Below are positions 3,937 through 47,675 of a DNA stretch of 64,000 nt, piece by piece. A program made the translations under genes and the position numbers. The DNA comes from Christensenellaceae bacterium. GTDB lineage: Bacteria; Bacillota; Clostridia; Christensenellales; UBA1242. The DNA lies in NCBI GenBank assembly GCA_031260975.1, contig JAISKJ010000001.1, positions 5,463-69,462 of the forward strand. Reading direction: 5' to 3'. A model generated the notes under the pieces. That model worked only from the letters and a program-made list of their open reading frames with translations. It did not search any database and was not told where the DNA came from. Each line of letters starts with the position of its first letter. The first letter of the stretch is position 1.

Positions 3937-5565
3937 TTATATTTCGCCGGATAAGGTAACATTTCCCTTGCTTGTGCTTTTTGTTATTACAATCTTTCCT
4001 ATATTATCATTTACTCTTGGGTCGTCCCAGATTGTATAGCCCACCCTATAAGAGTGTGCACCAGACACATAGTCAGGGTCGGATAATGATACCGGACTAA
4101 ACAAACCGTGTGAAGTGTTGGGATTGATTGTTACAGAAGTTGAGCACACCAGCATATATATGTCGCTGCCCACCTTTGAGATTAAATCTATATCATAGCC
4201 TCTGCCCGAAATGGTGCTGCCCTTAACGACATTAATAAACCTCAGTGTCATTTTCTTATCTTTGCCGCTCTCTCCCAAAACCGAAATGGTTACCTTACCT
4301 CTCATATTGTTGGCTTTTATTTCGCCTTCTTTAGTAGTTATGTTAAGCTCATAAGCCGGCGCTGTCTGTTCAAAGGTTATGTCAATTGTGCCGGTCACAG
4401 TGTTGGCCGAAACATTACCTTTTGCACTCCCTACCTTAATGCCGCCCGAAGTAGTGGTAATAATTAAATTTCCAACTGCCTTAGATATAGTCACCTCACC
4501 CTTTCCCGCCTCAATTTCGCTAAGAGCAGGTGTCGTAAGCTCTTCTATAGTATATTTTACTTTAGGCTCTTCACTGTCCATAGGCAGAGACAATATTGTG
4601 CCGTAAACCTTTTTTATATCAATCGTAACATTTGTCGAAAACACCTGCATACCAACCGGACTGCCTTCTGCGCCAAGCTGCCCCACTGTCACAAAGCCCG
4701 TTTTTGATATCACATTCAGGTTGCCGTTTATTATATCCGCCTTAAATCTGGGACCGCCTACGCCTGAGCTTGAAACAATTCTGACGTTTCCGTTTATTGT
4801 GCCGTTCTTTCGTGAGTTGCTTACATCAAACGCACCTGAATTTGTAGCAAACTCTATGCTGGCGTCTATGCTGTTTGTGGTCACCGAGCCTGCGGTGTGA
4901 GCATAATTTTTAAAGCTTGCCGTTCCGCTGTCGGTTTTTAGTATATATCTGTCAAACTTAGGATAATTTATAGTTACATTGCTGCCGCCGCCTTCTATCT
5001 TTGCCATAAAGAGCTTGGTTTCATTTATCGCAAAGCCGCCAACCTCACCCACAAAATCTATCTGACCGCTCTGCGTCTGCACCGAATACAATTTTGGTGT
5101 CATAATTTCAGGCACATATAAAGTAATAGCGTTTTGCTTGGGGAATACCCATCCCTCAGGCTCTTCAAACACCACCATAAGAGTGTTTACGTTATTATAT
5201 GCTCCGCCCGCGTTGTCATTAAACGACCACTGCACAACTTCTGCACTATATGACACTTTAGCACGGTTTACATCCACAAAACCCGAAACGCCTTCTTTAT
5301 AAGAAACAATCAGTTTATCATTTATTTTGTTTGGTTCAATGCTGACTGACATACGGTTGGTTTTTATAAATATAGCATCAACATTTAATATATTTGTTTC
5401 GTCATAAGCAAACTCATGAGACTTATCCAGCTTTATATATCTTACGCCGAATATATTGCTGTTTGGCACAGTCATCAAAACAACGCCGCAGACTAAAACC
5501 GCAGTAATACAAACTCCGATTATAATTCCAAGATACATAAAAAATCTGCCAATAGTCTTTTTCAT
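3937..5565 (-). CDS. membrane-anchored protein with repetitive beta-strand (DUF4097/adhesin-like) body
   Basis: N-terminal TM segment (FFMYLGIIIGVCITAVLVCGVVLM), then Gly/Asn/Thr/Val-rich repeats. GAGGTGG lies before ATG 5565. Confidence 0.65.
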   Translation of the reverse strand: MKKTIGRFFMYLGIIIGVCITAVLVCGVVLMTVPNSNIFGVRYIKLDKSHEFAYDETNILNVDAIFIKTNRMSVSIEPNKINDKLIVSYKEGVSGFVDVNRAKVSYSAEVVQWSFNDNAGGAYNNVNTLMVVFEEPEGWVFPKQNAITLYVPEIMTPKLYSVQTQSGQIDFVGEVGGFAINETKLFMAKIEGGGSNVTINYPKFDRYILKTDSGTASFKNYAHTAGSVTTNSIDASIEFATNSGAFDVSNSRKNGTINGNVRIVSSSGVGGPRFKADIINGNLNVISKTGFVTVGQLGAEGSPVGMQVFSTNVTIDIKKVYGTILSLPMDSEEPKVKYTIEELTTPALSEIEAGKGEVTISKAVGNLIITTTSGGIKVGSAKGNVSANTVTGTIDITFEQTAPAYELNITTKEGEIKANNMRGKVTISVLGESGKDKKMTLRFINVVKGSTISGRGYDIDLISKVGSDIYMLVCSTSVTINPNTSHGLFSPVSLSDPDYVSGAHSYRVGYTIWDDPRVNDNIGKIVITKSTSKGNVTLSGEI

Positions 5566-5659
5566 GTCCACCTCGTTTAAAGTATACAATATTTATCAGC
5601 TTTAGTCAAGAAAGTGTTTTGAATAAAAAACAAGCCCTCATAAGATAAAAATTGTAAAT

Positions 5660-5688: not shown

Positions 5689-6768
5689 TTATGTCATTCC
5701 CATTTCTGGCTCTTTAATAGGATTACTTTCTGAAACAACTTTCCATCCCATCGCTTCAGCTTCAGATGACAACTTAAAACTCATTTTTATCCCGTTCTCT
5801 TCCCGTGGGTTTTCAGGCTCAACTTGGGCCTTGGGCTGATGCTCAGTCTCTAAAACTCTTTCCTTTTCATATTGCTCCATAGTCATGCCTGCAAGCCTCC
5901 GTTCTTCCTGACTGAGTCCTCCTCCTTCATCTACATATCTGATCGACTGCTCATATCCTTCTATATTCATGTTTTGTGCGGCTGTGCGCTCACTTTCGGG
6001 AATTTTAAAAAGTTTAGCAAGTTCCCTTTTATCACACTCATAACCATACAAACTTATAAGACAACCCAACGAACTCTCCGGTTCATTAAAATACAGATGT
6101 TTAAAATCTTCTATTTGCCACTGCTGCGCAACTGTACGTTTCTCTCTGGGAATCTTTTCAAGTTCTGCAACCTCCTTAGCCAACCAATCAGGAGCTTTTT
6201 CCATAGGCTCAGCAGTTTTCTTATTAAATTCAACAATTTCCTGATCTAGTTTAGCACTTTGCTTATCTAACTCTAGCATTTCCTTAATAAACGGACGGGG
6301 TTTAATTCCTCCCTCAAATATCTTTCTAATTTCTGAGGTTGATATTTTTTTCTCAAACTCCCTTTCCTCATCGGGCGTCGGCTCCGGCTCGCCTTTTTTA
6401 TGCTCCTCTGCCGCGTTTTTTAAAAATGTTTCGTGATTTGGGTTTACTGTCACCTGCGACATAGGCTCTTTGTTATTAATCATGCTTAAAATACGATTAT
6501 AAAGTTTTCTGCCTTTACTCACAGCCTCAACACCCCCTACTCCCCCTTTCTGCTTTACAGTTTTCAAAATTGCACTAGCAACATCAACTCCTACTAAAAG
6601 GTCAGGACCAATTGGGTCAATACTGTTTGTCTTAGCCTTATCAAAAGCCATCTCTAAAATCTTTTCAGCTTCATCCACATCCTTAGTCGGGTCAGTTCTG
6701 ATAATAAGCATTATCACCTTATTGCGCAATCTTATAAGGTCTTCCCACCGATATCCCAAAATACTCAT
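5689..6768 (-). CDS. hypothetical protein with an internal duplicated KIPxxxRTxAQ motif
   Basis: 359-aa ORF with GGAGAG before the ATG and its own promoter and terminator. No family recognised. Confidence 0.7.
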   Translation of the reverse strand: MSILGYRWEDLIRLRNKVIMLIIRTDPTKDVDEAEKILEMAFDKAKTNSIDPIGPDLLVGVDVASAILKTVKQKGGVGGVEAVSKGRKLYNRILSMINNKEPMSQVTVNPNHETFLKNAAEEHKKGEPEPTPDEEREFEKKISTSEIRKIFEGGIKPRPFIKEMLELDKQSAKLDQEIVEFNKKTAEPMEKAPDWLAKEVAELEKIPREKRTVAQQWQIEDFKHLYFNEPESSLGCLISLYGYECDKRELAKLFKIPESERTAAQNMNIEGYEQSIRYVDEGGGLSQEERRLAGMTMEQYEKERVLETEHQPKAQVEPENPREENGIKMSFKLSSEAEAMGWKVVSESNPIKEPEMGMT

Positions 6769-6794: not shown

Positions 6795-6826
6795 AGTATA
6801 GCATACTGCCCCCCCCCCCATGTCAA
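6795..6826 (-). promoter_or_regulatory. promoter with a G11 homopolymer in the spacer (drives 5689..6768)
   Basis: On the minus strand: TTGACA (6821-6826), t, a G-run (plus-strand C-run about 6809-6819), cag, then TATGCTATACT (6795-6805). Confidence 0.5.
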
Positions 6827-6889: not shown

Positions 6890-8335
6890 CTAAAATATAT
6901 CATCAATTTCTTCCGGAACTGGCGGAGGAGGAGGTAGCGGGTCTTCGGGCGGAGGCGGAATATCCTCAGCCTTAGGAATATACTTTTGAGGCTCAGCCCT
7001 GCTGTCAACATCCTTAAACGAAGTAATTTCACCAATCCATCTGAGCTTGACTGTCCCCGTTTCACCGTTTCGGTGCTTGGCTATAATAAGCTCACACACA
7101 CCCGGCGGGTCCTCGCTGACAACATCATTATGCTTGTCAGGGTTATATAAAAACAACACTATGTCGGCATCTTGTTCAATCGCACCGCTTTCTCTCAAGT
7201 CGCTCAGTTGCGGCTTGTGATCCTTTCGGCTCTCAAGTGCACGGCTTAGCTGAGAGAGCAAAATTATCGGCACATTAAGTTCGCGGGCGGCAATTTTCAA
7301 GTTGCGCGTCAGTTCACTTATTTCCTGCTGACGGTTTTCTTTGTTCCTGCTCATGCCGTTCATAAGCTGAAGGTAGTCTATCATAACAAGGTCAAGACCA
7401 TATTTAAGCTTAAGCCATCTGCACTTGCTTAATATATCTACCGGAGTGCTGCCGGACGAGTCGTCTATATAAATCCCCGCTTCACTCAACTTTTTGTTGG
7501 CAGTCCACAAGGCCTTCCAATCGTCCTTAGTGAGCTCTCCGTTAAGCCCCTTGGTCATGCTGATGCCGGCTACGCTAAACAGCGAACGCTGTGCAATCTG
7601 CGTTTTGGGCATTTCAAGTGTAAATACCGCGCACTTCTTTTTATGGTTTAGTGCCGCGTGGTTTATTATATTCATAGCAAAACTTGTCTTTCCCACACCA
7701 GGGCGTGCTGCCAGAAGTATCAGGTCACTGTTTTGAAGCCCTCGAGTTATCTTATCAAGTTCCTTAAATCCGGTGGAAACACCTCTTAGCGCGTTTTTAT
7801 CCCTTGACACCATATCAAGCTTGGCGATAACATCCTGAAGCGGTCTTTCAATTTGCTCTAAGCTGCTGAGCTCATCGCTCTGTGCAATATCAAATATGCA
7901 CTTTTCGGCAAAGGCAATAACATTGTTCTTTTCTTCGTTTGTATAAGCCTTGTCAATAATTTGATTACTGGCTTTAATAAGGTTTCTAAAAACTGAATCG
8001 CGCTTTACAATGTCCACATAATTATCTACGTTGGCAGCACCCGGAACAATATTGGTTAGAGTAGTTATATAGTCAATCCCGCCAACAGCATCCATAGTGC
8101 CCATACGCTCGAGCTCATCGGTAAGTGTCACAAAATCTATGGGGTTATGAGCATTATAAATATGCTCCATAGCATCAAAAATGGTTTTATGTGCTTCGGT
8201 ATAAAAATCCGTAGCCCCTAAGCGCATCATAACACCGATGGATGCCTCATTGTCAATAAGATTACACCCCAGCACCGCCTGCTCGGCTTCAATGTTATGC
8301 GGCATCATTCTTGCTGCTGTTCTTTTCTTCTCCAT
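6890..8335 (-). CDS. dnaB: replicative DNA helicase (DnaB family) with a Pro-rich, acidic C-terminal extension
   Basis: MPHNIEAEQAVLGCNLIDNEA at the N-terminus, Walker A ARPGVGKTSF, and QLSRALESRKDHKPQLSDLRESGAIEQDADIV. Confidence 0.95.
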   Translation of the reverse strand: MEKKRTAARMMPHNIEAEQAVLGCNLIDNEASIGVMMRLGATDFYTEAHKTIFDAMEHIYNAHNPIDFVTLTDELERMGTMDAVGGIDYITTLTNIVPGAANVDNYVDIVKRDSVFRNLIKASNQIIDKAYTNEEKNNVIAFAEKCIFDIAQSDELSSLEQIERPLQDVIAKLDMVSRDKNALRGVSTGFKELDKITRGLQNSDLILLAARPGVGKTSFAMNIINHAALNHKKKCAVFTLEMPKTQIAQRSLFSVAGISMTKGLNGELTKDDWKALWTANKKLSEAGIYIDDSSGSTPVDILSKCRWLKLKYGLDLVMIDYLQLMNGMSRNKENRQQEISELTRNLKIAARELNVPIILLSQLSRALESRKDHKPQLSDLRESGAIEQDADIVLFLYNPDKHNDVVSEDPPGVCELIIAKHRNGETGTVKLRWIGEITSFKDVDSRAEPQKYIPKAEDIPPPPEDPLPPPPPVPEEIDDIF

Positions 8336-17969: not shown

Positions 17970-17999
17970 ATTATACCCCCCCCCCGTCGATTTTGTCAA
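17970..17999 (-). promoter_or_regulatory. consensus sigma-A promoter with a G10 homopolymer in the spacer (drives 17665..17943)
   Basis: On the minus strand: TTGACA (17994-17999), aaatcgac, G-run (plus-strand C-run about 17976-17985), TATAAT (17970-17975). The spacer is about 18 nt. Confidence 0.6.
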
Positions 18000-20090: not shown

Positions 20091-20436
20091 CGGGTATTTG
20101 AAAAATATACCATAAAAATCCCCGCCTTTTTCCTTTTATTACTCTAAAGCGGCATATATTTGCTGCTCAATATTTAGATACCAAAAAAACAACCATGTTC
20201 TCCTTTTATGTGCTGTGATACATACCACTTTTACTCTTTACTTTCTCCCTGCTCAGGTGTCCACCTTGGAGTGCAAACAGGAATAAAAACACCCTTGGTT
20301 TTTTCGGTCCAAAAATACCATTCATCTTTGTCAATCAGCACGGCATCGTTTTTTTATTTTAAGCCCCCCCCTCTATACTTAAATATTTTGAAAGTATCTT
20401 CATCAAACTTTTGATAAGTACTCTCTGCTCTACACT

Positions 20437-47594: not shown

Positions 47595-47645
47595 ATTTGT
47601 TCTCCTTTTTTTGTTATGCATTTTTTATGCATAAATCATGTGTAT

Positions 47646-47675
47646 AGCATATAACATTTTTATACACCATGTCAA
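47646..47675 (-). promoter_or_regulatory. sigma-A promoter of the lipoprotein gene
   Basis: On the minus strand: TTGACA (47670-75), 18 nt, TATGCT (47646-51). Confidence 0.45.

Follow-up and report, generated by a model that had tools for sequence, protein, structure and literature searches.

A run of eleven guanines fills most of the promoter spacer of a 359-codon orphan gene in an uncultured gut Clostridia genome. As far as can be judged from its sequence, this G11 tract probably acts as a slipped-strand contingency switch or dimmer of the monocistronic gene, which would currently be in a low state. The mechanism itself, promoter-spacer slipped-strand phase variation, is already known; what is new is the present locus as part of a genome-wide phasome. 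The locus lies in a window of 64,000 nucleotides (C4:5463-69462) of a 1,186,791-bp assembly with seven contigs and approximately 40% G+C (genome G000). Its features, with window coordinates, are as follows.

8335-6890, minus strand: dnaB, the upstream neighbour.
6865-6842, minus strand: intrinsic terminator of dnaB with a 10-bp stem and a T-run to about 6832 (terminator scan and sequence).
6843-6741, minus strand: promoter, leader and N-terminus module of 103 nt (blastn, E = 2e-23).
6826-6821, minus strand: -35 hexamer TTGACA, a perfect consensus match (sequence).
6820, minus strand: single t between the -35 box and the tract (sequence).
6819-6809, minus strand: G11 homopolymer in the promoter spacer (C11 on the plus strand), a putative hypermutable element (sequence).
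6808-6806, minus strand: cag between G11 and the -10 region (sequence).
6805-6800, minus strand: proximal candidate -10 box TATGCT, the weaker of the two, with a 15-nt spacer at G11 (sequence).
6803-6795, minus strand: candidate extended -10 box TG-c-TATACT (TG 6803-6802, TATACT 6800-6795), with a 20-nt spacer at G11 (sequence).
6784-6778, minus strand: ribosome-binding site (RBS) AAAGGAG, with a 9-nt gap from GGAG to ATG (sequence).
6768-5689, minus strand: the 359-aa orphan open reading frame (ORF list).
5688-5656, minus strand: terminator after the orphan gene (terminator scan).
17976-17985, minus strand: sibling tract ahead of the gene for a 92-aa membrane protein, TTGACA-aaatcgac-G10-TATAAT (18-nt spacer).

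The minus-strand sequence of the locus is ...gacagtgtattttaatacactgtt-ttttgcgtttacata-TTGACA-t-GGGGGGGGGGG-cag-TATGCTATACT-attagtgttt-AAAGGAG-agaatttat-ATG..., with the RBS and ATG located 27-40 nt downstream of the poly-G promoter. The tract thus sits between the -35 and -10 boxes of the orphan-gene promoter, and at 11 bases it belongs to the length class of G/C runs (approximately 8-9 or more) that is prone to hypermutation. The two -10 candidates, TATGCT and TG-c-TATACT, overlap (6805-6795, minus strand); a TGn extension is typical of Gram-positive promoters. Re-reading of the sequence showed that the initial annotation had given correct coordinates for the promoter parts, for the C11 run on the plus strand and for the upstream terminator, as well as spacers of about 15 nt for TATGCT and about 20 nt for TATACT, and it agreed that the tract occupies a promoter spacer, here that of a near-consensus sigma-A promoter. 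The motif near 47646 that had been used for comparison is also present (TATGCTATAC, 47642-47651, minus strand), 18 nt past a TTGACA. We rejected two other roles for the tract: a G-quadruplex, which one G-run alone cannot form, and an mRNA element, as the tract lies upstream of both predicted transcription starts.

The dnaB terminator (6865-6842) insulates the promoter from upstream transcription and, because a second terminator follows the orphan gene (5688-5656), the gene is monocistronic. The DnaB protein itself carries a proline-rich acidic tail (...EDIPPPPEDPLPPPPPVPEEIDDIF) past its helicase domain (6890-7000, minus strand). On the other side, the downstream gene has its own promoter (TTGACT-17-TATACT, 5609-5581, minus strand) and encodes a 550-aa protein (3937-5589, minus strand) with one N-terminal transmembrane helix and a beta-rich body, for which the only match was a weak, LiaG-like one, far below the cut-off (E = 5e-6).

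By composition, the orphan protein is hydrophilic, rich in Glu and Lys, and has a pI of 5.2; no signal peptide, transmembrane segment or lipoprotein signal was detected in its 359 residues. Searches against Pfam, PHROGs and NCBIfam returned no match, and PDB sequences gave two non-significant ones (E = 0.28 and 0.38). No homologue but the protein itself was found among 5.8e9 and among 1.84e9 proteins, and an AlphaFold (AF2) model was unusable (pLDDT 38). When 41 relatives were included, the matches were confined to its own genome (n = 2), namely the gene itself and a paralogue of 572 aa on contig C6. The public protein record begins at Met20 (340 aa; affected region 6712-6768, minus strand). 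The RBS and the N-terminal sequence MSILGYRW-DL, which is conserved with the paralogue, indicate that translation in fact begins at the ATG at 6768.

The similarity to the paralogue extends upstream of the coding region. The 103-nt module, with its T-run and A/T-rich upstream stretch, -35 box, G tract, -10 boxes, 5′UTR, RBS and first nine or so codons, is 84% identical to the paralogue copy at G000:C6:58969-59069 (blastn). Only three gap positions interrupt the alignment: two extra G's in the paralogue (G13 versus G11) and a single base near the 3′ end. With its G13, the paralogue places the proximal box, TATGGT, at exactly 17 nt. A third related promoter (C3:422536), upstream of a lipoprotein gene, has the core TTGACAt-G12-taTATGCTATATT, and a promoter in a relative (G129) reads TTGACAt-G9-tagaTGcTATAAT, with the same architecture as the present locus and a spacer of exactly 17 nt. 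Paralogous and related modules therefore carry tracts of G11, G13, G12 and G9.

A block of this kind, common to two otherwise diverged paralogues, raises the question of whether promoter and tract are a copied or recombined module that spreads together with gene 5′ ends, the tract being a passenger and its promoter position the result of copying and not of selection. Near-identical promoter cores that occur in groups, such as the tgctgtgttataat class at four loci, and many-copy, genus-specific cassettes in relatives would fit this. We nevertheless regard it as improbable, given that the present genome has at least four unrelated tract-bearing promoter cores, in both G and C orientation, and that tracts of at least 9 bases are retained across 35 genera although mutation pressure erodes unselected homopolymers. 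Copying is, moreover, compatible with switching: the vlp genes of Mycoplasma show both.

Long G/C tracts stand apart from the remaining homopolymers of the genome. G/C run lengths are bimodal, with 619 runs of length 5, 59 of length 6 and 4 of length 7, followed by 29 runs of 8-15 bases, compared with fewer than one (about 0.3) expected from the decay at or above length 8. By contrast, A/T runs decay smoothly to a maximum of 10, despite 60% A+T. Within the window, eight G8 words were observed versus 0.67 expected. A -35 and a -10 box framed 14 of the 29 tracts, as opposed to 1.04% of 169,434 virtual 10-nt tracts (binomial P = 1e-20). By eye, 13 of these 14 are convincing and one, C3:396373 (intragenic, 25-nt spacer), looks spurious; the scan also missed a G15 tract at C6:62264 (TTGACAaaaatgc-G15-ATAAT), and the curated total of promoter-spacer tracts is about 14. 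These fit with base precision between TTGACA-like and TATAAT-like hexamers, the latter often as TGnTATAAT. About 15 tracts remain, approximately five at an RBS or in a 5′UTR and nine within genes. The initial annotation had argued that two such promoters within 12 kb could not be due to chance and had proposed a genome-wide scan; the 29 tracts, against fewer than one expected, bear out the argument, and the scan ties long G/C runs to promoters very strongly and non-randomly. Where the same annotation envisaged a small phase-variable regulon, the scale was set too low, with about 14 tracts in promoter spacers, about 15 at RBSs or inside genes, and a design that is family-wide. The tract loci are probably independent contingency loci, with no sign of one common regulator.

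Behind the promoter tracts are genes for three lipoproteins, several membrane proteins and lineage-specific orphans, which are typical contingency genes; the excess of long tracts is concentrated at promoters and 5′ ends of genes with accessory or surface roles. One target is unusual for a promoter of this kind: a C11 promoter-spacer tract with an 18-nt spacer precedes the gene of a 409-aa protein whose N-terminal domain is ThyX-like (PF02511; C3:187232-188508). Outside promoters, G8-G10 tracts lie 5-9 nt ahead of start codons at C3:237920, C3:282518 and C3:612140, where they could serve as, or space, the Shine-Dalgarno sequence and possibly act as translational dimmers. At C3:79251-79259, a G9 tract joins two open frames, of 153 aa upstream and 171 aa downstream, and the locus looks like a phase-OFF frameshifted gene.

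In 27 of the 29 tracts of at least 8 bases, it is the leading strand, locally the G-rich one, that bears the G-run (P = 1.6e-6). Examples from the window are 6809-6819, 17976-17985 and 20364-20371, which all read as C on the plus strand, and the genes behind the three promoters whose sense strand has a C-run (C3:188498, 687293 and 708684) lie on the lagging strand. Both observations indicate that tract orientation appears to follow replication and not transcription. Mismatch repair is intact, with stop-free open frames for mutS (906 aa) and mutL (615 aa), so that mutability would depend on tract length alone, which counts against the switch.

Tract length was compared with a second assembly. 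Exact-protein look-ups with the orphan, DnaB and three other tract-adjacent gene products pointed to one public run only, SRR14710919, whose Logan contigs match the metagenome-assembled genome (MAG) in length at all four tracts compared (G11, G13, G12 and G10). This agreement is a point against switching. At two of four tracts examined, a Logan contig ends at the tract: the G11 locus, on both sides, and the G12 tract. At the present locus, one contig ends in ...G11-CAGTATGCT and another starts with C-G11-CAG.... Such breaks fit a tangled assembly graph, but could equally be an effect of coverage or of errors at homopolymers. Two pattern scans of metagenome contigs yielded no further copies. 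The breaks at the present tract, together with poly-G at contig ends in some relatives (for example, G009:C44:1-43), are what would speak for a sequencing or assembly artefact, such as two-colour Illumina poly-G, or for a chance homopolymer. This reading is effectively refuted: the tract sits inside unique sequence and is equally long in both assemblies, and neither the base-precise placement between -35 and -10 boxes (the P = 1e-20 above) nor the leading-strand G-runs in 27 of 29 cases would follow from it.

For the ordinary promoters of this genome, we counted TTGAC[AT]-N-(TATAAT, at least 5/6) pairs without long G/C runs. There were 116 pairs at 17 nt, 34 at 16 nt and 35 at 18 nt over a background of about 20, and 40 of the 116 pairs at 17 nt bore a TGn, compared with about 1-2 at other spacings. 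From this sharp peak it follows that the RNA polymerase of this organism obeys the usual spacer rule. In the same count, poly-G promoters had spacers of 17-23 nt, so tract length would decide the register of the -35 and -10 boxes. Poly-G promoters of Neisseria likewise follow the ordinary 17-nt rule. The two spacings at the present locus, 15 and 20 nt, had been called off-optimum before, which the 17-nt peak of the ordinary promoters bears out; because both miss this optimum, the sequenced (majority) G11 allele is probably low or OFF, making the earlier idea of a low or OFF allele a reasonable and probable one. Changes in tract length could have a modest dimming effect instead of an ON/OFF one, since promoters with an extended -10 box do not necessarily need a -35 box. 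A spacer of 20 nt occurs in 5 of 14 poly-G promoters, the present locus included (by our own assignment), and none in this genome has a spacer below 17 nt. The latter is a point against the switch, as unbiased switching around an optimum would not obviously predict it. We also considered that A-form shortening of poly(dG) might make 20 nt act as about 18 nt, and dropped this idea as pure speculation.

On the preferred reading, slipped-strand mispairing during replication would add G's to the tract or remove them, altering the distance and rotational phase between the -35 TTGACA and the TATGCT/TG-c-TATACT region, and promoter strength would change heritably yet reversibly. The predicted register is 17-18 nt for TGcTATACT at G8-G9 and 17-18 nt for TATGCT at G13-G14. 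A G8-G9 allele would thus turn the promoter ON through TGcTATACT, and a G13-G14 allele would perhaps do so through TATGCT. We infer both the high frequency of such switching and its effect on transcription from these features.

The architecture recurs widely in the family. Relatives identified through DnaB are MAGs labelled "Clostridia bacterium" from the gut of roe deer, Hadza humans, mice and rabbits. G9 runs were present in 38 of 61 sampled family genomes, and the pattern TTGAC-N(1-9)-G9 was found in 66 of 201 family genomes, at hundreds of sites, versus four matches in total for a reversed control pattern. The genus of the present genome is monotypic in the reference set (this genome only), and in 12 relatives from other genera no G/C run of at least 8 was found at the dnaB-syntenic position. 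Promoter cassettes are genus-specific. In genus g15 (G014 and G173), the cassette TTGACAAAAATGC-Gn-TAGAAT/TAAAAT, with gcTTGACAAAAATGC before Gn, is found at a minimum of 13 loci in each of these genomes of approximately 1 Mb. Among the 13 loci listed for G014, which have identical flanks, eight have n = 9, two have n = 8, and n = 7, 10 and 12 occur once each; the commonest value, n = 9, gives a 16-nt spacer. The 13-mer gcTTGACAAAAATGC also precedes the G15 tract upstream of a lipoprotein gene in the present genome (G000:C6:62264-62278).

Such regularity could mean that this promoter class is stereotyped and that its G tract has a fixed function and is no switch, whether as a site recognised by a dedicated regulator or sigma factor, as a structural feature or as a rigid GC-rich spacer on which promoter strength depends, with length differences reflecting slow evolutionary tuning. 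Cassettes are indeed stereotyped within genera, for example as gcTTGACAAAAATGC-G9-TAGAAT, mostly with exactly G9; the 20-nt spacing recurs at several promoters of the present genome, and the two assemblies have identical tract lengths. However, copies with identical flanks span G7-G12 in one genome, and those in the present genome span G9-G15. Tracts of similar length also lie at RBSs and in ORFs, one of them at an apparent frameshift junction, which fits a general strategy based on hypermutable tracts better than a binding site specific to promoters, and it is established that G/C homopolymers of at least 9 bases are slippage-prone in every bacterium tested (PMC5953494). We therefore consider a fixed element unlikely. 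For the family as a whole, we lean towards the view, with only modest confidence, that these uncultured gut Clostridia of approximately 1 Mb possess a large poly-G phasome working chiefly through promoter spacing, with G7-G16 cassettes, up to about 20 loci per genome, intact mismatch repair and a G-run that is almost always on the leading strand. If true, the leading-strand bias would suggest a replication-strand rule for the origin or upkeep of the tracts.

Several known systems resemble the present one. In Neisseria meningitidis porA (poly-G) and opc (poly-C), a tract between the -35 and -10 boxes sets the spacer through its length, resulting in high, intermediate or no expression. The porA, opc and fetA promoters share with the present locus a G/C homopolymer of about 9-14 bases in the -35/-10 spacer of a sigma-70-type promoter, and both organisms combine intact mismatch repair with many tract loci per genome. 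SSRs in promoter regions cause transcriptional phase variation in Neisseria, as with the intergenic C(10-14) tract of fetA, and the many such loci per genome make up a phasome (PMC5953494). The differences are that the present host is a Gram-positive-type uncultured gut Clostridia member with a genome of approximately 1.2 Mb, that the target is a cytoplasmic-looking orphan and not an outer-membrane protein, and that its promoter offers an extended TGn -10 box together with a second -10 candidate that overlaps it. Furthermore, most SSRs are intragenic in Neisseria, whereas about half of the long tracts here are in promoter spacers, and switching with its effect on expression is established there and predicted here.

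The vlp lipoprotein genes of Mycoplasma hyorhinis have a poly-A tract in the promoter spacer and a conserved cassette of promoter, 5′UTR and N terminus ahead of diverging bodies. Both systems place a homopolymer between the -35 and -10 boxes, have several lipoprotein genes downstream and belong to small genomes of the Firmicutes lineage, and the shared 5′ cassette of vlp corresponds to the 103-nt module of the two MSILGYRW paralogues. They differ in that the tracts here are poly-G/C (A/T runs do not exceed 10), that the present orphan lacks a lipoprotein signal and that the present organism has a cell wall and probably forms spores (a Logan contig of the species carries spo0A).

In Campylobacter, tracts are mostly intragenic and MutS/MutL mismatch repair is lacking. 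Unlike in that genus, mutS and mutL are intact here, and promoter spacers hold about 14 of the 29 tracts; the lack of repair thus does not extend to the present organism. The poly-G phasome of Campylobacter jejuni (PhasomeIt, PMC6321876) is otherwise similar, with about 30 G/C tracts of at least 8 bases in a small A+T-rich genome, bimodal tract lengths, and surface or accessory targets. With mismatch repair intact, the closest parallel is therefore with Neisseria and Haemophilus and not with Campylobacter.

The literature searched describes phasomes in Campylobacter and Neisseria, invertons in gut bacteria and, in Bifidobacterium, a poly-G switch within a coding region; it contained nothing on promoter-spacer poly-G tracts in gut Clostridia or Firmicutes. 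Promoter-spacer homopolymers are a textbook device for immune and phage evasion in mucosal pathogens and mycoplasmas. Here, the device occurs at about 14 promoters of a single commensal-type gut Clostridia genome of approximately 1.2 Mb and in a third of the sampled family genomes. The probable contingency control of an orphan without homologues makes it likely that its partner is variable, be it the host, phage or competitors. If the tracts do switch, consensus MAGs would capture only one of many expression states. Because poly-G tracts also break assemblies, loci of this kind are systematically under-represented. Our findings suggest that uncultured gut Firmicutes make major and under-described use of stochastic, heritable expression switching by slippage, beside the well-studied invertible promoters.
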